A DNA stretch of 64,000 nt from Candidatus Gastranaerophilales bacterium (GTDB lineage Bacteria > Cyanobacteriota > Vampirovibrionia > Gastranaerophilales > Gastranaerophilaceae): the NCBI GenBank assembly GCA_944324345.1, contig CALUVT010000004.1, positions 116,246 to 180,245 on the forward strand. Direction: 5' to 3'. The notes beneath the pieces were generated by a model that was not told where the DNA came from, ran no database searches, and was given only the letters and a program-made list of their open reading frames with translations. A program made the translations under genes and the position numbers. Within the stretch, counting starts at the first letter, position 1. Each line of letters opens with the position of its first letter. Of this stretch, positions 1,415-49,424 are shown piece by piece.

Positions 1415-1445
1415 AAAGGAGCTTTTTTTAAAGCTCCTTTTTGTT
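1415..1445. terminator. Bidirectional rho-independent terminator between convergent genes
   Basis: Perfect inverted repeat AAAGGAGCTTT / AAAGCTCCTTT (1415-1425 / 1430-1440), flanked by A-run and T-run. Confidence 0.7.
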
Positions 1446-2973
1446 ATTTATTGGGATTTACAAAACCTACAGATTTTCTTGATACATTGTTTTTTCCTGA
1501 CAAAAATTCACTCATTGCTGTTTGAAAATCCTCGTATGACAAACGTAAATTTTCCATATCCGATTGAGTAAAAGTTCCATTTTCCATTTTTTCATATATA
1601 CCAGCTCTTTCAAAAGCATGTTCATTGGCTCCATTTACAATATATGCAATATCTGCACCTGTTGCTTGCATATTCAGAAGTTCATCGGCAACTAAATCTT
1701 TTGGAAAATCTTTGTCCAACGCTTTATTTTTTGTGTGTATATCAAAAATTTTCAACACAGCATCTTTTGTATTAGGAGCTTTTACCTCAATATGCTTTCC
1801 AAAACGCCCCGAACGAGTGATGGCACTGTCAAGAATATCAAGTCTGTTAGTTGCTGTAATAACAAATATGTCATCACCATTCTTTTCAACATCACTCATC
1901 AATGTCAAAAGCTGGTTTACAACTTTATCTCCATAAACATCCATACCGCCTCTTTTCTTTGCTACGGCATCAAATTCATCTATAAAGATAATGGCAGGTT
2001 GATTTTCTCTTGCAGTATCAAAAAGCTTACGCCAATTCTCTTCAGAAGCTCCAACCCACTTGGATTCCATTTCTAAGCCATTCAACTTTATAAAGGAGGC
2101 GTTTGTTTCGTTTGCTAAAGCCTGAGCAATAAGAGTCTTGCCGGTTCCAGGAGGACCGTACATTATGTAACCGTGGTTCACTGTAGTATTTCTGTAAGCT
2201 TCAGGGTATTTTATAGGATAAATAATTCCCTTCTTTAATGAGTCTATAACACTATCCTGACCGCCAACATCGGCAAAAGAAAGTTTTTTACCCTTACCTG
2301 CAAATGTTTGCAAAATTGAATGGATTGATTTTTGGTTTTGACGTTTAATTACAGGTTCAACTTCCTTTGAAAAGTCAAACATTTTTGCAAATATTTTTCT
2401 ATGCATACTTAAATCAGTCAATGGTTGTTCTTTTATACTGAGTGTAGTATCACCAAAATTCAAAACATCCCCCGTTTCAAGATAAAAACTATCTCCTGAG
2501 TTCATTGTATATTCGGATTTGCCACTTTTTAAAACAAATGAAAACTTGTTCGGATTGTACGCTTCCAATTCGTTGCTGTGATTTTTATAAAGAGCAAGAG
2601 AAGCTTTTAAGTTATCATCTTCAATATAAAAGAGTCTTTTTATAATACTATGGAAAGAACCGCTTAATTCTTTCAAACTCTTTTGGGCAGACATTAAAGT
2701 TTCATCAACAACAACAACATCTCCTTGTTTTAATATCTGAAGAATAGATGATAAACGATCTTCCAGAGGAATTTTTTTGGCTAAAGAAAGAGCACTGGAC
2801 TGAAGTCCGGTAAAATTTACACCGGAATAGTATCTGTAATTTGGCAATTTATCTATCTGCTTTTGTTTGGGCGAGATAGTTGCAGTTAAATTTGGGGCAA
2901 CATTTTTTTTAAGTTGCAGGTTTTTATTAGTGTACGGGGTACAATAATAATTTTGAACAGGGTTGATTCTCAT
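1444..2973 (-). CDS. AAA+ ATPase (CDC48/FtsH-type single AAA module) with unknown N-terminal region of about 250 aa
   Basis: Walker A GPPGTGKT, Walker B IIFIDEFD, second region of homology ATNRLDILDSAITRSGRF. Start moved to ATG 2973 (MRINPVQNYY): SD AAGGAGG lies 9 nt upstream, whereas the track GTG 2979 is only 3 nt from the SD. Confidence 0.85.
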   Translation of the reverse strand: MRINPVQNYYCTPYTNKNLQLKKNVAPNLTATISPKQKQIDKLPNYRYYSGVNFTGLQSSALSLAKKIPLEDRLSSILQILKQGDVVVVDETLMSAQKSLKELSGSFHSIIKRLFYIEDDNLKASLALYKNHSNELEAYNPNKFSFVLKSGKSEYTMNSGDSFYLETGDVLNFGDTTLSIKEQPLTDLSMHRKIFAKMFDFSKEVEPVIKRQNQKSIHSILQTFAGKGKKLSFADVGGQDSVIDSLKKGIIYPIKYPEAYRNTTVNHGYIMYGPPGTGKTLIAQALANETNASFIKLNGLEMESKWVGASEENWRKLFDTARENQPAIIFIDEFDAVAKKRGGMDVYGDKVVNQLLTLMSDVEKNGDDIFVITATNRLDILDSAITRSGRFGKHIEVKAPNTKDAVLKIFDIHTKNKALDKDFPKDLVADELLNMQATGADIAYIVNGANEHAFERAGIYEKMENGTFTQSDMENLRLSYEDFQTAMSEFLSGKNNVSRKSVGFVNPNK

Positions 2974-3064
2974 ACACACACACCTCCTTGTTTTTTGAAG
3001 ATACTATTTTTTTTCATAATCGTCAATAAGCCGATTTAACACAAAAAATAAGCTTTTAGGATAA

Positions 3065-12556: not shown

Positions 12557-13825
12557 ATGGATAAGAAGATTAAAGTTGGGTTAATAGGATTAGGCACAGT
12601 TGGATCAGGGGTTTTTAAAACTCTTAGGAATTTTAATGAAATTGAAGTTTCAAAAATTGCAGTAAAAAATATCAACAAAAAACGTGATATTGAGGGATTA
12701 GAAACTTCGATGCTCACGGATAATGCTTACGAAATTGTTAATAACCCCGAAATTGATATAGTGGCAGAACTTGTCGGCGGGATAGAACCTGCATTTGACT
12801 TAATATCGACAGCAATAAAAAACGGTAAACATATAGTTACCGCAAATAAAGAACTTCTAGCCAAATGCGGCGAAGATATATTTAAACTTGCAGAAAAATA
12901 CAACAGAGTTATTCTTTATGAAGCGGCAATAGCCGGTGGTATTCCTATTATCATGCCTGTAAAAACAATTCTTGCAGGGAATGATATCACTCACATTGAG
13001 GCAATTTTAAACGGAACAACAAATTACATTTTAACAAAAATGGATGTTCAAAAAGCATCTTACGCAGACGTTTTGAAAGAAGCTCAAGAATTGGGTTATG
13101 CGGAAGCTGACCCGACAGGTGATGTTGAGGGATTTGATGCGGCTTATAAAATTGCGACTCTTGCATCAATAACTTTTAACAAACGTATTGATATAAAAAA
13201 AGTTTATAGGGAAGGTATCACAAAAATCAGAGCAAAGGATATGGAAGCTGCAAACGATTTGGGGTACAAAATTAAACTTATTGCCTCTGCAAATATTGAT
13301 GAGAATGACAATGCAGATGTCAGAGTTCATCCTATGCTTGTTTCTAAAAAATCAACTCTTGCACATATTGATTATGTAACAAATGCTGTTATGCTAAAAG
13401 GGCATCCTGTTGGAAGTATAACACTTTCAGGCCCCGGTGCTGGAGAATTCCCGACAGCGAGTTCTGTTGTCGGTGATATCTTAGCAATAGCCGCAGAAAT
13501 TGGGAAATCTGATTATATACTTCCCATGATGAGATGTAAACACAATTCTGCAGCACACATGCTTGATATTTCTGAAACTACAAACAAATATTACATATCA
13601 ATTCACGCCAACAATAACAAGGGTGTAATCGGCAAAATCGGAACGATTTGTGCTGATAATGATATAAGTCTTGCAAGTATAGTACAAAAGTGTGTTTCAG
13701 AGGACAATACTGCAGATATAACAGTTATCACAGAACTTGTTAAAGAAAAGAATATGCAAAATGCTATAAAATTGATTGAAAAAGACGGAAATATTGTCGA
13801 AAATCTAATCAGAGTTCAAGTTTAA
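12557..13825 (+). CDS. hom: Homoserine dehydrogenase
   Basis: [14 protein letters not shown]-binding site, catalytic region, C-terminal ACT-like domain. Confidence 0.9.
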
Positions 13826-20048: not shown

Positions 20049-23000
20049 ATGCTACAGGAAGCTTCACGAGCAATAAATTCAGCATTTAATAACAGTTTTA
20101 TAAAAAAATTAAGCCAATATCTTCACGACTGCGTAAGAGAAGAAGTCAAAAGTTCAACATTTAGAAACCTTAAAGGAGATAAAGACAACAAATGGATTTT
20201 CCTGAAAGGTGAAGAACAGCTTTTCTCAACCGGAGCAGAATATATATCGCTTGAAGGCAGTGATTCGAAACTCACTGAACTTATGATTCAAAGTGATTTA
20301 GGACAAAAAGACAAATACCTTATATATGGTTATCTTTTCTTGGTAGGAAAGAGTTCAAAAACAAAAAAACAAAACGAATTTTTAACCCCGCTTTTGTACA
20401 TGCCCTGCAAACTCGAGAGAAACGGAGTTAACATAAATTGTCTTCCTCTGGATGAGGTTTTGTCTCTAAACACAGGTGCGTTAGCGGCTTTAATGCGTAA
20501 AAATGATGATGAAGATGAAGTAGATCTTTTACTTGAAGGAATTTTGGATGTAGTTCCGGACCTTCCGATAACACAAGAAAAACTTGATATCTTCCTAACA
20601 ACCCTGAAATCTCTCGTTCCTGAAATAGAAATCGCAGAAAATATCGGAGATTACCAAGAAGACGATAACATTTCAAAAACCAAAGAATTTTACAAAGAAA
20701 AAATCGATGGCGACAATCTGGAAGAAATAATCGAAGAAGAAACAGAACAAGAAAAACAAAAAGTTAAATTGGAAAGAATTGCCGTAACTTATCAAAGTGC
20801 AATAATTCTGACAAAACGTCCATCAGTAACTGCAGGTGTTCTTCACGAGTTGACACAAATTGCGGAAAAACCTTCGGGTATATACAGAGAAACAGCTCTA
20901 AACATAATTAACGAAGAATACGCACAAAGTAAAGAAAAATCAGTTCCGCTCAAAGATATGAATAAAATTACTGATTTTTACCCCATAACACCACTTTCTT
21001 TGAGTGACAGCCAGCTTCAAGTAATCAAAAATATTGATAACAGTAAATTTGTTGCGGTACAAGGCCCTCCCGGAACCGGTAAATCTCAAACAATAGTTAA
21101 TTTGGTAGCACATTTGGTAGCAAATGGAAAAACCGTGCTTGTCGCATCACGTATGGACAAAGCTGTTGATGTTGTTGCGGAAAGATTAAATGATTTGGGT
21201 GCAAGCCATATGGCTTTGAGAGCAGGAAGATTAAATTATCAAAGACAACTGAGTGAAGAATTGAACAACCTTCTTTCACAAAATGCTGGTTTGGATAATG
21301 ATATTGAAGATATTTTGCTTGTCGATACAAAAGATATGAAAGATCATTTGGACATGCTTAAAAATATGGAGAGCAAGTCCGAAACTATTATTAATCTTGA
21401 AAAAGACTGGCACGACAAACTTTTAGAAGTTGAAGAACAAGAAAAGCTTCTCGGTAAAAAAGAGTTTATCAAAAAAAGTCTTAAAAAAGGTGAAATTGAC
21501 ATTGTTGCCGGAATTATAAAAGTTCTTGAACATAATATGGAAAAGGCGGGGTTTATTTCCAAAATCGCAAACTTCACAAGTCTTGGTCAATTAAAGAAGA
21601 TACTTAATTTGAAAGAATTTGACGTGAATTATGAAAGTCTTGGGAGATTGAAACAAGAACTCGAATTTGCAAATATGGAATGGTCTTTGAGAAAAATCGA
21701 AGCTGATATCCAAAAGACAGGCAATCTTCACATGCTGTCAGAACAAATTCGTACAATGAAAAGAAAACAAAAAACTCTTGCAATAAATATATTAAAAAAC
21801 AGACGAAGAGAAGCCCTAAAAAATCTTTTGAGAGATGAAAACAAACGCAGAAGACTAAAAGTTCACAGCAAATCACTTGTTGCGAACAGGAAACGCCTGC
21901 AAACAAATATATTAGAAGAAGAAGACTTTAAACCATTATTAGAAGCATTTCCCTGCTGGTGTGTAACTACATATGCAGTATCAGATTCTCTTCCTTTAAA
22001 ACCTGGAATGTTTGATGTAGCAATTATTGATGAAGCATCACAATGCGATATTGCAAGCTGTTTCCCTATACTTTTCCGTGCAAAACGTGCGGTAATAGTA
22101 GGTGATGACAAACAACTTCCGCATCTTTCATTTTTGGAAAAAGCAAAAGAACAATCCTTCTTAAGCCAATATGGAATTCCGGATAAATACCAGCTTATGT
22201 GGCGTTTCAGAACAAATTCAATGTTTGATTTAGCAGATTACTACTCAATGAATTCTGTAATGCTTGATGAACATTTTAGAAGCCTTCCACCAATTATTAA
22301 TTTTTCAAACCACGAATTTTACAATGACAGAATTCGTGTCATGAGAAAAGACAAACCTGAAGAAAAAGTTTTGGAATTGGTTGAGGTTTTGGATGGTAAA
22401 GTTGATGTTGATGCTACAAGAAATTTGCCCGAAATTGAAGCTCTTGTAAAACGATTACATGAAATAATTATAGAAGATGAACGCCAAAATCCTGATAATC
22501 CCGTGTCTGTTGGTATAATATCACCTTTTAGAGCACAGGTTGAACAATTAAAAATTTCTGTCTCAAAAGTTCTATCTGACTACATGATAAAAAAACACCA
22601 GATAGAAATTGGTACAGCCCATACATTCCAAGGTGATGAACGAGATATTATGATGATATCCTGGGCATTTGCCGATAACAGTTATATGCAAAGTTTAACA
22701 TTCTTGCAAAAGCCAAATCTCTTTAATGTTGCAATAACACGAGGTAGAAACAAAGTCATAAACTTTATTTCACGCAACCCGAGAGAACTGCCTGATGGAC
22801 ATTTTAGAAATTATATTTCCTATTTGCAAGAATATCAGAACCGCAAACAAGCAATGCTTTCTGGAGATATTGACGAAAATATCTACAAAAACTCGCTTGA
22901 ACGGGAAGTCGCAGAAAAGATAAGAGAACTTGATCATAAAGTCGTAGCTGGAGCAAACATTGCAGGTCTAAGTGCAGATTTGGTAGTAGACGACAAATTT

Positions 23001-23165
23001 GTGATAGAAATTGACGGCTTAGAGGATAAAATTAAATCACATATTTCAAATATGAAAAAGCAAGCAATAATTGAGCGTTCAGGTTTTAAAGTTAAACGTA
23101 TAACTTTCCGAGAATGGCAATATTCACCTAAAGCTTGCATTGACAGAGTTCTCATTGAAGAATAA
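20049..23165 (+). CDS. SF1 helicase (Upf1/DNA2-like, AAA_11/AAA_12) fused to a C-terminal DUF559/Vsr-like endonuclease domain
   Basis: Motif I GPPGTGKSQT, motif II IIDEASQ, VGDDKQLP, GTAHTFQGDERD, VAITRGR. About 190-aa coiled-coil insert. C-terminus ADLVVDDKFVIEIDG...RSGFKVKRITFREW. Confidence 0.85.
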   Translation: MLQEASRAINSAFNNSFIKKLSQYLHDCVREEVKSSTFRNLKGDKDNKWIFLKGEEQLFSTGAEYISLEGSDSKLTELMIQSDLGQKDKYLIYGYLFLVGKSSKTKKQNEFLTPLLYMPCKLERNGVNINCLPLDEVLSLNTGALAALMRKNDDEDEVDLLLEGILDVVPDLPITQEKLDIFLTTLKSLVPEIEIAENIGDYQEDDNISKTKEFYKEKIDGDNLEEIIEEETEQEKQKVKLERIAVTYQSAIILTKRPSVTAGVLHELTQIAEKPSGIYRETALNIINEEYAQSKEKSVPLKDMNKITDFYPITPLSLSDSQLQVIKNIDNSKFVAVQGPPGTGKSQTIVNLVAHLVANGKTVLVASRMDKAVDVVAERLNDLGASHMALRAGRLNYQRQLSEELNNLLSQNAGLDNDIEDILLVDTKDMKDHLDMLKNMESKSETIINLEKDWHDKLLEVEEQEKLLGKKEFIKKSLKKGEIDIVAGIIKVLEHNMEKAGFISKIANFTSLGQLKKILNLKEFDVNYESLGRLKQELEFANMEWSLRKIEADIQKTGNLHMLSEQIRTMKRKQKTLAINILKNRRREALKNLLRDENKRRRLKVHSKSLVANRKRLQTNILEEEDFKPLLEAFPCWCVTTYAVSDSLPLKPGMFDVAIIDEASQCDIASCFPILFRAKRAVIVGDDKQLPHLSFLEKAKEQSFLSQYGIPDKYQLMWRFRTNSMFDLADYYSMNSVMLDEHFRSLPPIINFSNHEFYNDRIRVMRKDKPEEKVLELVEVLDGKVDVDATRNLPEIEALVKRLHEIIIEDERQNPDNPVSVGIISPFRAQVEQLKISVSKVLSDYMIKKHQIEIGTAHTFQGDERDIMMISWAFADNSYMQSLTFLQKPNLFNVAITRGRNKVINFISRNPRELPDGHFRNYISYLQEYQNRKQAMLSGDIDENIYKNSLEREVAEKIRELDHKVVAGANIAGLSADLVVDDKFVIEIDGLEDKIKSHISNMKKQAIIERSGFKVKRITFREWQYSPKACIDRVLIEE

Positions 23166-29843: not shown

Positions 29844-30095
29844 TTATCCAACGTATTGTTCTTCCTGTATTGCAACTGCTGCAACTTGATTTGAAATAAA
29901 GCTTACTTTTTTAATCGGGCCGAGAGTTTCTTTTTCGATTAAATTTGCGGCAGAACTTTTTGCTGCTTGTTGAATTTCTGCATATAATTCTTCAGGATTT
30001 TCAACATACAAAACCAAAGGGGCTGTCGAACCCTTTAAAAATACTAAAACTGATACTCTCTTTTTAATATTTTGTGCATTAAACTGCTGTGCCAT
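29844..30095 (-). CDS. Hypothetical protein (83 aa)
   Basis: ORF 4 nt upstream of yceD, same strand. No recognisable domain. Confidence 0.4.
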   Translation of the reverse strand: MAQQFNAQNIKKRVSVLVFLKGSTAPLVLYVENPEELYAEIQQAAKSSAANLIEKETLGPIKKVSFISNQVAAVAIQEEQYVG

Positions 30096-30163
30096 TTTAC
30101 ACTCCTTTTGCTAACATTATAATCGTTGAAATTATAAAATAAAAAGAAGGATAATGCAAATTG

Positions 30164-30598
30164 TTAACCTATATCAGAAAACTTGTCAGAAGCTTTTTGA
30201 ATAAATTCTTCAATATTTTTACAAGTCTGTTCATCTTCCAACAATTTCAATATATCATATTTAGAACCGTATTCTAAAACAACGGAATAATTGCTTAAAT
30301 TGTCTGAAGAATTAGCTTTTATCCTCAATTCTCTTTCTTTTGGTCTTTCTTTGCCAAGAACGGAAGGATGGATGGATATTGTAATATCTTTTATGCCTAG
30401 GTTTTTGTCAGAATTTTTAAAATTTGTCTTTACAACCCTAAAATCACCATATTCAGGAACTGCACGTTCTGATTCAGTGTATAATTTTTTTAACGCTTCA
30501 ACTATCTGTTCCGCGTTATTTTGTAGTTTTTTCTCCTGTTTTGAAAAAACCGTTTTTACTAATCTTTTATTCATAACTTCTTCTGTCGATTTTATCAT
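30164..30598 (-). CDS. Hypothetical protein (144 aa), immediately downstream of the RSH-like gene
   Basis: ORF begins 27 nt after the stop of the 474-aa gene, same strand. No recognisable domain. Confidence 0.45.
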   Translation of the reverse strand: MIKSTEEVMNKRLVKTVFSKQEKKLQNNAEQIVEALKKLYTESERAVPEYGDFRVVKTNFKNSDKNLGIKDITISIHPSVLGKERPKERELRIKANSSDNLSNYSVVLEYGSKYDILKLLEDEQTCKNIEEFIQKASDKFSDIG

Positions 30599-30625
30599 AT
30601 TACCCCCATTATTTTAATGTAATTT

Positions 30626-32050
30626 TTAATTTTTTACAACCTGATTAGTTTTAATTTTTATATTTTGAGCTTTGTTGTGTATTTTTTCTAAGTTTTCAAA
30701 ACTTAAGATTGAATAATCTCTTAATCTCTTTGGAAGATCAGGGAGCTTAAAATCCCCGGGGACTTCTCCTAACTCGTACTTTCTTATATAGTTGTAGCAA
30801 TCTCGAATATATTTATCATAAAGTTTATTGAGCCCGTTTCGTTTTAATTTTGTTGTTGCATCTTGAACAGGTGCAAAGAGTTGTTCAAGTTCAGGGATAT
30901 TCTTGCTTATGTTTTTCCCCATTCTTATATCGTATGGAATATGTTCTATCTCTGCATATTTCATCATCAAGTTCCCTCGAATCTGCAATTCCCCGAGTGC
31001 TCCATTTGCATAGCGTAAATTCATTTGGGTTGTGACATAGCCTGATTCACTCAAACATTTGACTGTTTCTAAGTTTTCTATTTTCATGTGAACTCTGGCT
31101 GCTGATTTTCTTATCTGTTCAAAATGCTTTTCTGTGAAGTAACGTTTTGAACCGTTCGCATAATTACTTAATTCCTGAACATTTATCTTTCCGTGTTCTA
31201 TTGCATCGCATAAATTATCAACTATTTTTTGAATTCCTGAAGGAGAGATATCATCAAGGACAATTCTTGTTCCAACAAGATCGGTAATTTGACCTTTTGC
31301 ATCATCAATGTTTTTTATGTCTATACCTTTTTTTAAAACTTTTTTCATTAATTTATCATAAATTGATTCCGCACTCTTTCCCCTCACCTGAGGCATGACG
31401 CCGAAAATGTTATATATCTGTTCTCCTGCAGAACCGGCTTCAAAACCCACGATATTACCCGATTTGTCTTTAATAACGCCTGCAGCCTTTTGAGCTTCCT
31501 TCTCAAGCTGAACAGCACAAGAATACAAATCATCCTTGACTAAAAAACATTTTTCTATATTTTCGCGGTTTTTGATAATATCATCAGACGTATCAAACAG
31601 CCCCAGAATTTTTTTATAATATGCTGAATCAAAATGATTAAAGTTTTTTTCAATGGTAACTATTTTATGGTAAGTGTCTTTGTCTAAAGTACTTAAAAAC
31701 CTCTCAAGCGATTGTCCTGTAAAAGAACCATCGGAATTGCGAGTAATGTAGCCCAATTTTTCCCCACCTGAAAGCAGTTCCTGAAAATTTTCTTGGGCTT
31801 GTTTAGGCAGATAATTATATAATTTTAAAGCTGTTTTTTTATCAAGCTTAGTGGAGGATATAATTTGTGTTAAATTCTCTCTTGCAGCCTTCAATTTGAC
31901 AACATCAGACAATACATCAGGGGAAAAATTACTTTGTATTGGGTTTGATTTAAACGACAAAACTCTGTTTGTGTGAGGTTTTTTACTCTTTAACACAAAC
32001 TTGCCAAATTTATTTACTACTATTTTTGATATCGTAAAAAAATTAGCCAT
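30626..32050 (-). CDS. RelA/SpoT-homolog (RSH) synthetase-like nucleotide pyrophosphokinase domain protein with unknown N-terminal region of about 220 aa
   Basis: Syn1 VRGKSAESIYDKLMKK, Syn2 ITDLVGTRIVLDD, Syn3-like SGYVTTQ, Syn4 GELQIRGNLMMKYAEIEH, Syn5-like IPYD. Recognised by eye and needs an HMM search. Confidence 0.6.
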   Translation of the reverse strand: MANFFTISKIVVNKFGKFVLKSKKPHTNRVLSFKSNPIQSNFSPDVLSDVVKLKAARENLTQIISSTKLDKKTALKLYNYLPKQAQENFQELLSGGEKLGYITRNSDGSFTGQSLERFLSTLDKDTYHKIVTIEKNFNHFDSAYYKKILGLFDTSDDIIKNRENIEKCFLVKDDLYSCAVQLEKEAQKAAGVIKDKSGNIVGFEAGSAGEQIYNIFGVMPQVRGKSAESIYDKLMKKVLKKGIDIKNIDDAKGQITDLVGTRIVLDDISPSGIQKIVDNLCDAIEHGKINVQELSNYANGSKRYFTEKHFEQIRKSAARVHMKIENLETVKCLSESGYVTTQMNLRYANGALGELQIRGNLMMKYAEIEHIPYDIRMGKNISKNIPELEQLFAPVQDATTKLKRNGLNKLYDKYIRDCYNYIRKYELGEVPGDFKLPDLPKRLRDYSILSFENLEKIHNKAQNIKIKTNQVVKN

Positions 32051-32139
32051 TATCTTAAGTATCCCCTATATTTATTAAAAGGATTTCTGACAAAGATAAT
32101 TGCTAATTTTTCCGATTTATATTACAAATACTTTAAATT

Positions 32140-32514
32140 TTATTTTGACATAATCTCGATTTCGTTGCCATCAGGGTCTTTCAGAAATGCAACGTGCATA
32201 TTTACTTCCGGCATAAAAAACGGCTCATAAAGATATTTGTAACCAAATTTGTTCATTTTTTCCGTAAATTCATCCATTGATTTTGCTTCAAAAGCTAAGT
32301 GACCGAACGCATTACCGTTAACATAGCCATCTTTTGGGGTTTCGTTGTTATACGTCAATTCTATTTGAGTTTGGCCATCTTCGTCACTCAAATAATACAA
32401 AGTTGAATCATCCAATTTAACTTCGCCTGTTCTATTCAAATCCAAAAGTTCAGTGTAAAACTTCATTGATTCATCAATATTTTTTACCCTTATCATTACA
32501 TGTGCAAATCTCAT
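32140..32514 (-). CDS. gloA: Lactoylglutathione lyase / VOC-family glyoxalase I
   Basis: HVMIRVKNIDESMKFY ... GHLAF ... AFLKDPDGNEIEI. Confidence 0.8.
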   Translation of the reverse strand: MRFAHVMIRVKNIDESMKFYTELLDLNRTGEVKLDDSTLYYLSDEDGQTQIELTYNNETPKDGYVNGNAFGHLAFEAKSMDEFTEKMNKFGYKYLYEPFFMPEVNMHVAFLKDPDGNEIEIMSK

Positions 32515-32572: not shown

Positions 32573-33685
32573 TTAATCCACATGAGAAATTATACCGTTT
32601 GACGCGTTTTTATCAATTTCAATAACATGTCTTATTATTGTATGTGCCATCAAAAGCATATAAGGATTAATTTCATTTGTATTAGACATATTAATCTTTG
32701 CTTGAGGTTTTTCTTGTTTTGTATTAACGGTTGTCTGTTTTGAAGTTTCAAAAGAAAGTACTGATGCCATAGAGTAATGTTTTTCATCACCCTCAATTCT
32801 TCTGCCCAATTCCTCTTTTGGGAATTCTTTCACACACTCAATATTTACGTGCACAGAGTTTGAACTTTCTAAAATTAAAGTTGAAATTACATCCCCAAAA
32901 TTTAATGTCGAGACAGTTATTACAAGAATACTATCAGCTCCATCGCTTTTCTCACCCGCTTCAATATCAAGGTCAAACCCCACACCTTCCTGCAGTGGAA
33001 GCCAAGGGAGATATAACAAAAGTAACATCTTCATTGTCTGAGCGGAATCATTTTGAGAAGCCGCTGCGATGCTTGCATTAATTAATTTTGCAGTATCCTT
33101 CATTTGGGATAAATCTGTAATTCCGAGTTTTGCGGAATTTGCCATTGCGGTGATTAATTTTGCTACAGCATCTTTCCCGTTAGACTGAATCATTGCCGCA
33201 ACTTGAGAAAGATTTATCAAACCGGAAGAAGAAATTGCCAGATTTTTTATCGAATTTTGAAGTTGGTTTAATATAGCTTTATTCCCTGTCAAAAGCATGT
33301 TTTGTGCCTCTGTTAAAGACAATCCCTGAAGTTGAGCTAAAATTTGTGCCTGGGTTTGAGATAAGGAATTCCTTTGCATAGCATATTGATTTGAAAATCT
33401 TTGATTAAACTGTGCCAGAGTAATGTTTTTTTGAAGTATGTATATTAATTCATTCAAATTTTTAGGTAAATTCATCATCTCTTTCACATAAACGGACTGG
33501 TCAACAGATGCCATATTAGACATTTGTACGGGAGTAGAGTTTACTGTGGGAGTTTGCGATGCAGAAGAGGTTGGTGCTGCAAAAGAAGTTTGGGCAGGAG
33601 CTTTTGCAGACGGTTGTTTCTGAGTATTCAACGCCTGATAGTTCACAAACTTTGAAATTAAATAACCCAAATTTAAATCTGCCAT
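32573..33685 (-). CDS. Hypothetical Q/S/T/N-rich protein (370 aa)
   Basis: Long ORF with low-complexity N-terminal third. The N-terminus resembles that of the 474-aa RSH-like protein (MA[DN]..ISK[FI]V.N, SF, P[VI]Q.SN). Confidence 0.5.
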   Translation of the reverse strand: MADLNLGYLISKFVNYQALNTQKQPSAKAPAQTSFAAPTSSASQTPTVNSTPVQMSNMASVDQSVYVKEMMNLPKNLNELIYILQKNITLAQFNQRFSNQYAMQRNSLSQTQAQILAQLQGLSLTEAQNMLLTGNKAILNQLQNSIKNLAISSSGLINLSQVAAMIQSNGKDAVAKLITAMANSAKLGITDLSQMKDTAKLINASIAAASQNDSAQTMKMLLLLYLPWLPLQEGVGFDLDIEAGEKSDGADSILVITVSTLNFGDVISTLILESSNSVHVNIECVKEFPKEELGRRIEGDEKHYSMASVLSFETSKQTTVNTKQEKPQAKINMSNTNEINPYMLLMAHTIIRHVIEIDKNASNGIISHVD

Positions 33686-47828: not shown

Positions 47829-49424
47829 TTATTTTAATATGACTTCTGGATGCACTGCCAAAGACAGTTCAAATGCATCATCAAGAGCCTTGTTCACAAT
47901 GTCAATCAGCTCCTGACATCTGGTTTTTACTGCATAAGCTGCAAGGGCAATATAATCATCCTGAGCTTCCGGGGTAGATTGAATCCTATATTTTTGCCCA
48001 GACACGCCAACATTATTCCTAACTGTGTATACTGCGTATTCTAAAAGCTCTTTGTACTCATTACGGGGGTATTTTTTTAGATCTTTTAATGCTCCTATAA
48101 TATTAAAAACAGCAATTTGATATGTATCTGCCATTACATTATTTAATCCTTTTATATTTGTGTTTGCTGTAAATATTTCAGACGATTTTGGATCAATTGA
48201 ACTTTTTTGGGTATAGGGATTAAACATTGTATCACTTTTTAGTGCACCAGGTTCTAATCCTAATTTTGCTTCCACAAATCTTGTCAATTGCGTCGGAACC
48301 GTTCTTAAAGCCAAGAAAGTTTCATTTTCTTCCTTAATTTTTTTCCAAGCATATTTCATGTTTTTAGAAAAAGCCTTCTTTGCCCAATCATTTTCTGCCC
48401 AGAATAATTTCATTGCATGCATCTGCTCTTTATCTAATTTTTCCGGAGAAGACTCTACATTAAATTCTTTAATCTTTCTACCTTTCAAAAATTTTGACAA
48501 CGCATATTTTATCCTGTCAGCACCAAAAATATTCCAAGCTTTTTTCAAAACTCTGGTAAGCTCCTCTGCCTTATCAGGGTTGTTTTTGTAGAACTCTTTT
48601 TGTCTTTCTGACATTTCATAAATTCTTTCAGGATTTTCTTCGTAATAACGTTTCAACCCTTCAGAAATTCTTTTTTTGTGTTCAGCAGACAAAGGACCAC
48701 GTTTTATATAAACAGGTTCACCAGTTTCTACCTGAGCCTTTCTATCCAAAGCTATTGCGCGTTTCTCAACCATTTCACGTGTCAAACGTTCATTGTACTC
48801 AGGATCTGAAAATTTCAATATGTGACCATAATCCCTACTTGCAACAGGAATGTGTAATTTTTTCATTGTATGATGCAAATCTTGTCCATCTGCATATCTT
48901 TTTAAATCATTTAGGGAAAAACCTTCTCCCCAATATAGTTTTATCAATTGAACGGTCAAATCTTCATCATTATCAAAATACTCAAGCTCCCCTTTACGAA
49001 ATTTGTCTACGATAGAACCTTTAGCAAAAACTACATCATCTAAGGGTATAGCTTCACCAAATTCGGGGAATTTCTTTTTTATCTCGTCAAGTGTAAAGCA
49101 ATCTTTTAAAGCTGCAAAATATCTTTTATGAACGCTAATTAAAGTTTCCTTTGCTTTATTACCTTCTTCCAAGACCATCCCAGCCCACTCTCTTATATTT
49201 GGCGGATATATTGATGAATTTTTTTGGGCTAACTTATCCAGTTGTTTAATTGTTTGTGCCAAATCTAAGCTGTAACCGCCTGTAAAAGCCAAATACTGTG
49301 CGGTTGTCGGGAGTTGTGTATTTGATGCTACAGGCTTTTGTTCAGATTTAGCAGGTGTAGATGTATATTTATAGGTATTTAGTTTTGGGGTAATATTATA
49401 ATTTTGTATATTATTGATTTTCAT
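47829..49424 (-). CDS. Hypothetical protein (531 aa) inserted between fabZ and lpxA
   Basis: Long uninterrupted ORF with SD GGAG. N-terminus MKINNIQNYNITP...LAFTGGYSLDLAQTI is shared with the AAA+ ATPase. No enzymatic domain recognised. Confidence 0.6.
   Translation of the reverse strand: MKINNIQNYNITPKLNTYKYTSTPAKSEQKPVASNTQLPTTAQYLAFTGGYSLDLAQTIKQLDKLAQKNSSIYPPNIREWAGMVLEEGNKAKETLISVHKRYFAALKDCFTLDEIKKKFPEFGEAIPLDDVVFAKGSIVDKFRKGELEYFDNDEDLTVQLIKLYWGEGFSLNDLKRYADGQDLHHTMKKLHIPVASRDYGHILKFSDPEYNERLTREMVEKRAIALDRKAQVETGEPVYIKRGPLSAEHKKRISEGLKRYYEENPERIYEMSERQKEFYKNNPDKAEELTRVLKKAWNIFGADRIKYALSKFLKGRKIKEFNVESSPEKLDKEQMHAMKLFWAENDWAKKAFSKNMKYAWKKIKEENETFLALRTVPTQLTRFVEAKLGLEPGALKSDTMFNPYTQKSSIDPKSSEIFTANTNIKGLNNVMADTYQIAVFNIIGALKDLKKYPRNEYKELLEYAVYTVRNNVGVSGQKYRIQSTPEAQDDYIALAAYAVKTRCQELIDIVNKALDDAFELSLAVHPEVILK

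Follow-up and report, generated by a model that had tools for sequence, protein, structure and literature searches.

The 64,000-nucleotide window analyzed here, a stretch of DNA from a Candidatus Gastranaerophilales bacterium (GenBank assembly GCA_944324345.1, contig CALUVT010000004.1, positions 116,246 to 180,245), carries on its minus strand a module of two genes, one encoding a divergent RelA/SpoT homolog (RSH) of 474 amino acids (aa) and the other a 144-aa partner protein. The two genes are probably a toxic RSH enzyme and its protein neutralizer, and the reading that is tentatively favored, at a probability of about 0.4, is that the neutralizer is a cognate inhibitor of the binding type and that the toxin is deployed outward, against other cells. 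An earlier note, made by a model from the DNA letters alone, had described an RSH-synthetase-like protein followed by two small open reading frames (ORFs) and had proposed a toxin-antitoxin (TA) or effector/immunity module. Its RSH observation and its 144-aa candidate stand, whereas the inclusion of an 83-aa ORF in the module, the sharing of N-terminal motifs with other window proteins, and the choice of D256 as the catalytic Asp do not. The three ORFs and the gaps of 27 and 68 nt between them lie exactly where the note had placed them.

32050..30626, minus strand: gene of the RSH-like protein, putative toxin, 474 aa (ORF and translation)
30598..30164, minus strand: partner gene, putative immunity/antitoxin, 144 aa; start 27 nt past the toxin stop, with its own GGGGG Shine-Dalgarno sequence
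30095..29844, minus strand: 83-aa ORF, 68 nt beyond the 144-aa ORF; stop 3 nt ahead of the yceD start codon
32038..32111, minus strand: leader hairpin of the toxin mRNA, a 19-bp inverted repeat (repeat search and RNA folding)

RSH Synthetase Identity of the 474-aa Protein

Profile, motifs, and fold all place the 474-aa protein in the RSH superfamily. The Pfam model RelA_SpoT (PF04607) matches residues 223-370 with an E-value of 5.5e-7 and 30.3 bits against a curated cutoff of 27, independently matches 16 of 18 family members (E <= 1e-3), and is the sole significant Pfam match of the protein; NCBIfam gave no match for it. As the earlier note had stated, HD hydrolase, TGS, and ACT domains, which characterize the long RSH enzymes Rel, RelA, and SpoT, are absent by Pfam, and the protein is a stand-alone, divergent member with the RSH synthetase fold and not a housekeeping long Rel/SpoT. 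A search of PDB sequences with the family profile recovered RelP (E 5e-9), RelQ-type enzymes (about 3e-6), and RelSeq (1.5e-3). An AlphaFold2 model built from the family alignment (mean predicted local distance difference test score, pLDDT, 86; predicted template modeling score, pTM, 0.79) was compared with the PDB by Foldseek, and the top 33 matches are all RSH synthetases, a result far beyond chance. The best of them is the exported synthetase SaEAS (8vx3; E 1e-4, target-normalized TM score 0.53), followed by RelP, RelQ, and CapRel (7ztb; E 3e-4), with weaker matches to Tas1 (6ox6; E 0.09) and FaRel2 (8pu3; E 0.25). The RSH hallmarks that the earlier note had read in the right order are thus borne out by the motif positions and by the profile and structure comparisons that it had named as checks.

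aa 1-43, nt 31922-32050, minus strand: basic, disordered leader; pLDDT below 50
aa 44-200, nt 31451-31921, minus strand: helical region; about aa 1-130 confined to a short subfamily
aa 201-385, nt 30896-31450, minus strand: RSH synthetase core, with core residues R223, K225, S229, K233, D257, G260, R262, S336-G337-Y338, Q342, E354, Q356, R358, E369-H370, and Y373
aa 386-474, nt 30629-30895, minus strand: conserved, Tyr-rich helical extension

The motifs RGKSAES (position 223), DLVGTR (257), SGYVTTQ (336), GELQIRG (353), and EIEHIPYD (367) are arranged along the core. Among 32 relatives, R223, K225, S229, K233, D257, G260, S336-G337-Y338, E354, Q356, R358, E369-H370, and Y373-D374 are invariant where aligned, with R262 replaced by Lys in one and Q342 by His in one. 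The residue in the position of the catalytic Asp is D257, one residue beyond that first named, and the catalytic Glu had been placed correctly at E354. The family has a signature of its own, SGY[TV]xxQxN, E[LFW]Q[IL]RG, and EH[IV]xYDxRxGK, and deviates from the RSH consensus in Syn3 (His to Gln) and Syn4 (Thr to Gly). Judged from these sequences, the intact motifs in 32 relatives and the separate signature indicate that the family members are very probably active enzymes and that they very probably constitute a distinct RSH subfamily.

The C-terminal extension contains a Tyr-rich and highly conserved helix, YDKYIRDCYNYIRKYE (aa 406-430, nt 30761-30835), in which Y414, Y419, and E426 are invariant and which holds a YxxY string resembling the inhibitory motif of pZFD antitoxins. 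A C-terminal YDKY was considered as an inhibitory switch of the pZFD type (YXXY) and rejected, as it lies in a predicted helix of an all-helical extension, whereas pZFD is a beta/alpha domain. The protein as a whole has an isoelectric point (pI) of 9.3, and the leader one of 11.5.

The 144-aa Partner

The 144-aa ORF is a true co-inherited and co-diverging partner of the RSH-like gene. A scan of 185,579 species-representative genomes, based on two peptide patterns, yielded 31 RSH-like loci, 27 of which have a homologous partner ORF (104-162 aa, mostly about 140-150) on the same strand downstream of the RSH-like gene, at a gap of -4 to 79 nt (median 32) and whatever the N-terminal architecture of the RSH-like protein. 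Thirteen partner ORFs are tied directly to the window protein by BLASTP and the remainder by iterative search. In a separate metagenome sample, which overlaps the genome loci in part, 34 loci could be evaluated, and 28 of them have the partner downstream; of the six that do not, at least three carry an unclassified 144-160-aa ORF at the same place, and a fourth has one truncated by the contig end. The reverse search, from the partner homologs P0024 and P0047, found each directly after a 704-727-aa protein that is RSH-like by the family hidden Markov model (HMM). Such a conserved bicistronic arrangement with a small putative neutralizer gene is the organization of TA small alarmone synthetases, and the position in which the earlier note expected an antitoxin or immunity gene is indeed occupied by one gene family.

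The pairwise identities of the RSH domain and of the partner are correlated (Mantel r 0.73; 0 of 2000 permutations as high), with the partner diverging faster, at a mean pairwise identity of 23% versus 33% for the RSH domain. In four related loci, here cited by number (L003, L036-L038), the RSH gene and the partner gene are inverted as a unit.

The AlphaFold2 model of the partner (pLDDT 81) is of the alpha-beta4-alpha type: after a disordered N-terminus come one long helix, a sheet of four strands, and then two helices. Against the PDB and BFVD, Foldseek found nothing at E <= 1e-3, and Tis1 (6ox6), the pZFD antitoxins (7ztb, 8pu3), and small alarmone hydrolases (SAH) are not among the matches listed. 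No Pfam family was found across 28 members, no PDB sequence match, and no NCBIfam, PADLOC, or PHROG match. The identification of the partner as an SAH hydrolase, Tis1, or pZFD protein was therefore rejected, as no fold or profile match supports it, and membership in a known antitoxin class (pZFD, Tis1-like, PanA, or SAH) was not found by Foldseek against the PDB and BFVD, by Pfam, or among PDB sequences; the earlier note had likewise seen no recognizable domain and no obvious SAH hydrolase in it. Because the family has few conserved residues (only about five near-invariant positions) and neither an HD motif nor another catalytic signature was found, the partner fits a binding protein better than an enzyme, as far as its sequence allows this to be judged.

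Distribution, Architecture, and Divergence of the Relatives

Nearly all of the 31 loci belong to Gastranaerophilales, together with a few from Vampirovibrionales, one from a 'Deltaproteobacteria' metagenome-assembled genome (MAG), and one from a Gammaproteobacteria MAG; because only 31 of the 185,579 representative genomes carry it, the RSH-like family is accessory and not core. The relatives range from 342 to 2404 aa, and in 24 of 27 pairs the RSH-like domain stands at the extreme C-terminus with the partner gene directly downstream (gap -4 to 79 nt), the organization known from polymorphic toxins, in which a C-terminal toxin domain is followed by its immunity gene. The N-terminal parts are mosaic and fall into several recombining classes, and most of the longer relatives have one or two Gly/Ala-rich hydrophobic segments. 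Alternative toxins behind these N-terminal classes were not seen in the loci compared, save for two partial matches to non-RSH ORFs. Several architectures combine the RSH-like domain with further domains.

L007, 1638-8852, 2404 aa: signal-peptide-like N-terminus, Ppx-GppA, and RSH-like domain; no partner ORF
L006, 3615-8756: PRTase-CE and RSH-like domain
L013, 5766-12776: internal RSH-like domain, then an HD domain
L015, 4803-10457: sub-threshold SprT-like peptidase upstream of the RSH-like domain

The evolution of the pair is of the conflict type, with divergence far in excess of that of its surroundings. Compared with L002, identity is 63% for the toxin and 68% for the partner but 84-100% for the flanking genes, and compared with L003 it is 47% for the toxin and 93% for PlsX. 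Divergence is strongest at the N-terminus (27-59% identity), and the catalytic core is also affected (54-75%). In L036, a 185-aa ORF of the phage-integrase family (12843-13400) lies about 1 kb past the inverted pair, beyond the triosephosphate isomerase gene, and it may have some connection with the inverted orientation found there.

N-Terminal Region and Leader Hairpin

The earlier note had reported N-P-[IV]-Q and F-T-G-x-S-L motifs of the N-terminal region on three other proteins of the window. This candidate relationship was rejected after exact and relaxed pattern searches, BLASTP, and phmmer over all window ORFs: the only exact counterpart of the NPIQ of the 474-aa protein is NPVQ in the AAA ATPase at 1444-2979, no window protein other than the 474-aa one has FTGxSL, and residues 1-220 have no significant BLASTP or phmmer similarity to other window ORFs. 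Neither NP[IV]Q nor FTGxSL is conserved within the protein's own family. An exhaustive phmmer search of residues 1-220 against 1.84 billion representative proteins returned two matches, both from the same family, and the proposal of a widespread trafficking domain was rejected on this ground.

A marginal resemblance of another kind was observed between the 511-aa AAA ATPase (1444-2979, minus strand) and a 531-aa protein of unknown function (47829-49424, minus strand), which share the N-terminal pattern M[RK]IN.[VI]QNY..TP...FTG (BLASTP E 0.033). Additionally, partner-family proteins in L018, L023, and L032 start with M-x-IN-N...F-[TSK]-G. Such a start may be an N-terminal tag specific to the lineage, or it may simply reflect composition, the genome being AT-rich.

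The leader hairpin of the toxin gene (32038-32111, minus strand; inverted repeat I7, 19 bp, 95% complementary) contains the ATG of the 474-aa gene in its 3' arm and the Shine-Dalgarno sequence in its loop. The predicted RNA fold has an energy of -24.8 kcal/mol (z -4.26), and 0 of 200 shuffled sequences are as stable. L001 has this hairpin as well, its arms identical and its loop different (z -4.29), and so does L002, but L003 and L036 lack it. Its placement suggests that it may repress translation of the toxin.

Comparison with Known RSH Systems

By sequence, the nearest known proteins are the synthetases RelP and RelQ (6fgk, 5dec, 2be3; E 5e-9 to 4e-5), whose catalytic motifs RxKxxxSxxxK, DxxGxR, GY, and ExQxR are all matched. 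Unlike RelP and RelQ, the present family has about 200 additional aa at the N-terminus, about 90 Tyr-rich aa at the C-terminus, a long insertion between Syn2 and Syn3, the replacements of Syn3 His by Gln and Syn4 Thr by Gly, an obligatory partner gene, and rapid evolution.

With the TA synthetases FaRel, FaRel2, PhRel, PhRel2, and CapRel (PMC7229694, PMC11782079), the locus has in common a two-gene operon of a synthetase and a small protein, a conserved G-loop Tyr (Y338 here), and a similar structural core (7ztb, E 3e-4; 8pu3, E 0.25). It differs from them in that PADLOC and the PDB profile search (neither 7ztb nor 8pu3 at E <= 1) provide no sequence match to any of them, in that the alpha-beta4-alpha partner, matching no known structure, is neither pZFD nor SAH, and in that many relatives are giant proteins with hydrophobic segments.

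The exported alarmone synthetases (EAS) SaEAS, VpEAS, and AaEAS (Ahmad et al. 2025, PMC12691689) and Tas1/Apk1 likewise carry an RSH warhead without hydrolase or regulatory domains, and SaEAS is the best structural match of the 474-aa model. Exported synthetases without a Sec signal have a small immunity ORF behind them and variable N-terminal delivery regions (PMC12691689), a layout that the present family resembles with its small downstream ORF and variable N-terminal regions. Those with a signal peptide lack immunity genes (PMC12691689), as does L007, which has a signal-peptide-like N-terminus and no partner ORF. In contrast to EAS and Tas1, no Sec signal and, by Pfam, no LXG, XopAD, MuF, DUF4157, Rhs, PAAR, or VgrG-linked N-terminus was found; the partner is not Tis1-like, the structural match to Tas1 is weak (6ox6, E 0.09), and the host belongs to an uncultured, non-photosynthetic cyanobacterial lineage. 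The family is not mentioned in the text or supplementary text files of PMC12691689.

The Apk2 MuF toxins with their immunity proteins IapK and Aph1 (PMC12226406) resemble the present family in carrying an RSH-type pyrophosphokinase as the C-terminal warhead of a multidomain protein, and their binding-type, cognate-specific immunity gene lies directly downstream, a position and a presumptive mode of action to which the 144-aa partner may be likened. They differ in that a MuF domain, a phage context, and a hydrolase immunity gene are missing here. In Syn3, the SGY[TV]xxQ of the present family compares with SxH in guanosine RSH enzymes and GxN in Apk2, while Syn2 and Syn4 are of the guanosine-RSH type.

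The comparison of the earlier note with FaRel, CapRel, and Tas1 accordingly does not extend to sequence membership, since the 474-aa protein falls into none of these groups and the partner lies outside the known antitoxin and immunity classes. In the searched literature on toxic RSH enzymes, no mention of this lineage was found, and the literature search returned no antagonism or defense system described for Gastranaerophilales and no relevant toxin report.

Proposed Mechanism and Alternative Explanations

In the favored reading, which follows what has been described for RSH enzymes (PMC7229694, PMC11782079, PMC12691689, PMC12226406), the 474-aa protein would be an active RSH pyrophosphokinase that moves the beta-gamma pyrophosphate from ATP onto the 3'-OH of an acceptor, with the ATP donor bound via the basic residues of Syn1 together with D257 and E354 and the acceptor base stacked on the G-loop Tyr, Y338. 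The acceptor would most likely be a purine nucleotide, with (p)ppGpp, (p)ppApp, or both as the product, and the unrestrained toxin would drain ATP and GTP and stop growth. A purine nucleotide is preferred to tRNA because the nearest sequences are (p)ppGpp synthetases, because Syn2 (GTR) and Syn4 (QIR) follow the guanosine-type consensus and not that of Apk2, and because one relative fuses the domain to Ppx-GppA, a family that includes the pppGpp phosphohydrolase GppA. The 144-aa protein would be a cognate, non-enzymatic inhibitor that binds the toxin in the cytoplasm of the producer and blocks its active site, most likely by obstructing the donor or the acceptor site, the mode of inhibition of Tis1, IapK, and the pZFD antitoxins, but with a different fold, and the pair would be inherited and diversify as a single unit. 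Deployment would take the form of antagonism of other cells, of the polymorphic-toxin or exported-alarmone-synthetase type. Outward deployment is favored because the warhead-immunity cassette ends proteins of up to 2336 aa in other Gastranaerophilales, many of them with Gly/Ala-rich hydrophobic segments; of the two alternatives in the earlier note, the effector/immunity one is thus preferred, as the same domain terminates giant relatives.

Several observations weigh against this reading. The 474-aa protein has no signal peptide or transmembrane segment (maximum 19-residue hydropathy 0.94) and, by Pfam, none of the known secretion or trafficking domains (LXG, XopAD, MuF, DUF4157, Rhs, PAAR), and its overall charge is basic. 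Its N-terminal 220 aa are confined to its own family among the 1.84 billion representatives, so that the defining feature of polymorphic toxins, one N-terminus serving several warheads, was not found, and in L013, L015, and L030 the RSH-like domain is internal and not C-terminal. The scan with two peptide patterns found one RSH-like locus per genome. No secretion, defense, or mobile genes adjoin the pairs examined, save for the integrase-family ORF in L036, and no relatives were found in IMG/VR viral contigs, GenBank phages, or PLSDB plasmids. PADLOC and PHROGs gave no match for the module genes. With regard to the acceptor, RSH substrate specificity is not readable from motifs (PMC12226406), and it may be tRNA, as for FaRel2 and CapRel, in place of a purine nucleotide.

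Because the window protein has no export signal, secretion domain, secretion-gene neighbors, or mobile relatives, a strong rival, though itself a doubtful one, is an intracellular TA or abortive-infection module of the FaRel/FaRel2/CapRel kind, in which a cytoplasmic toxin, restrained by the 144-aa protein as antitoxin, would be freed by phage or stress and the fast-evolving N-terminal helical region would act as the sensor. The short form of the protein without export features, the absence of secretion genes near the pairs examined, and the TA-like bicistronic arrangement with its tight gap agree with such a module, the last being the indicator by which toxic small alarmone synthetases were discovered (PMC7229694). 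The N-terminal region diverges fastest (27-59% versus 54-75% for the core), the hairpin that covers the start codon points to a tightly controlled toxin dosage, and CapRel is among the structural matches (7ztb, E 3e-4). However, PADLOC gives no match, the nearest proteins by sequence are RelP and RelQ while CapRel, FaRel2, and Tas1 were not found at E <= 1, and the partner is not pZFD, Tis1-like, PanA, or SAH. The relatives that reach 700-2400 aa and carry hydrophobic segments or a signal-peptide-like N-terminus are unlike TA proteins, and the pair is absent from the phage and plasmid collections and stands among housekeeping genes, not in defense islands.

A physiological role is unlikely. 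The RSH protein would in that case produce (p)ppGpp for the cell's own stress signaling, as RelP and RelQ do, and the 144-aa protein would tune its activity. The housekeeping enzymes RelP and RelQ are nearest by sequence and account for several of the nearest structures, the pair is chromosomal and syntenic beside yceD-rpmF-plsX-fab in several species, and one copy per genome was found. Against these points stand the divergence of the pair, which is far faster than that of its housekeeping neighbors, the restriction of the family to 31 of 185,579 species representatives, the occurrence of the domain in fusions, both with giant proteins that vary strongly and with effector-type domains (PRTase-CE, for example), and an obligatory downstream partner that co-diverges in the manner of immunity genes.

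Two bolder and improbable extensions of the outward-deployment reading may be considered. Taken together, the Gln that replaces His in Syn3 and the Tyr-rich extension at the C-terminus might indicate that the acceptor is neither GTP nor ATP nor tRNA. It is also conceivable, if improbable, that Gastranaerophilales use an undescribed delivery route, by way of the basic disordered leader or of Gly/Ala-rich membrane-inserting segments, for an RSH warhead guarded by an immunity protein of new fold, in which case the giant relatives with Ppx-GppA, HD, and PRTase-type domains would deliver a toolkit of alarmone metabolism into competitors or prey.

Extent of the Module and the 83-aa ORF

The module is of two genes and not three. 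The RSH and partner genes are found on the other strand in L003 and L036-L038, while the 83-aa ORF stays 3-4 nt upstream of yceD-rpmF-plsX; its identity is 79-86% across species in which that of the toxin is 46-63%, and it is absent from every other locus with RSH and partner. In the 68-nt gap upstream of it there is a promoter-like site, a kind of match that is common in AT-rich DNA. The 83-aa ORF was rejected as a component of the module on the basis of this synteny. The earlier note, which had included it, had suggested following the three genes through related genomes and had allowed that the small ORFs might be kept with yceD-rpmF independently of the RSH gene: the 144-aa gene accompanies the RSH-like gene and is not kept in this way, whereas the 83-aa gene behaves in the opposite manner on both counts. 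A three-gene module, in which both small ORFs would act on behalf of the RSH protein, for instance as a pair of immunity proteins, is consequently very improbable, despite the adjacency of three ORFs on one strand and the precedent of Apk2 with IapK and Aph1 (PMC12226406), given the behavior of the 83-aa ORF where the pair is inverted, its high conservation, its absence from the other loci, and the promoter-like site ahead of it.

With its stop codon 3 nt ahead of the yceD ATG, the 83-aa ORF appears to be translationally coupled to yceD, and in related genomes it always directly precedes yceD-rpmF. It looks like an uncharacterized gene of that operon, specific to the lineage, and NCBIfam links it weakly to NF010236 (PRK13683, hypothetical protein; E 0.0016).

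Genomic Context in the Window

On the minus strand, the gene order is a glyoxalase gene (32514..32140), the 474-aa ORF, the 144-aa ORF, the 83-aa ORF, yceD, rpmF, plsX, and fabH. The G+C content is about 32-38% across the entire window, and no known RNA or riboswitch was found near the locus with Rfam at E <= 1. A 370-aa protein is encoded further upstream (32573-33685, minus strand), the N-terminal third of which is rich in Ser, Thr, Pro, and Gln and which has no significant Pfam, NCBIfam, PADLOC, or PHROG match; in L001, L002, and L004, synteny is kept, with its gene ahead of the glyoxalase gene or of the RSH pair, but in L003 and L036 it is missing from that position. Elsewhere in the window, a 1038-aa superfamily-1 helicase (AAA_11/AAA_12; 20049-23165, plus strand), 94% identical in L001, has a weak C-terminal match to MTES_1575, a restriction-endonuclease-like domain (34.5 bits against a cutoff of 38.2).

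Implications

Toxic RSH enzymes have so far been described in TA and anti-phage systems and as secreted effectors, and the present family, an undescribed RSH subfamily from uncultured gut Melainabacteria, would represent a third context. It is probably a new version of a weapon type already known from bacteria, in which a fast-evolving, toxin-like RSH is combined with a putative blocker. Neither a known fold nor a Pfam family could be assigned to the partner, which, if it is an immunity protein, would provide a further way to block an RSH active site. In terms of approach, the conservation of gene neighbors in genome scans distinguished the true partner of 144 aa from the bystander of 83 aa. 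The fusions with Ppx-GppA, HD, and PRTase domains offer a handle on the nucleotide product, and the giant mosaic relatives would be the first candidate weapons of the Gastranaerophilales lineage.

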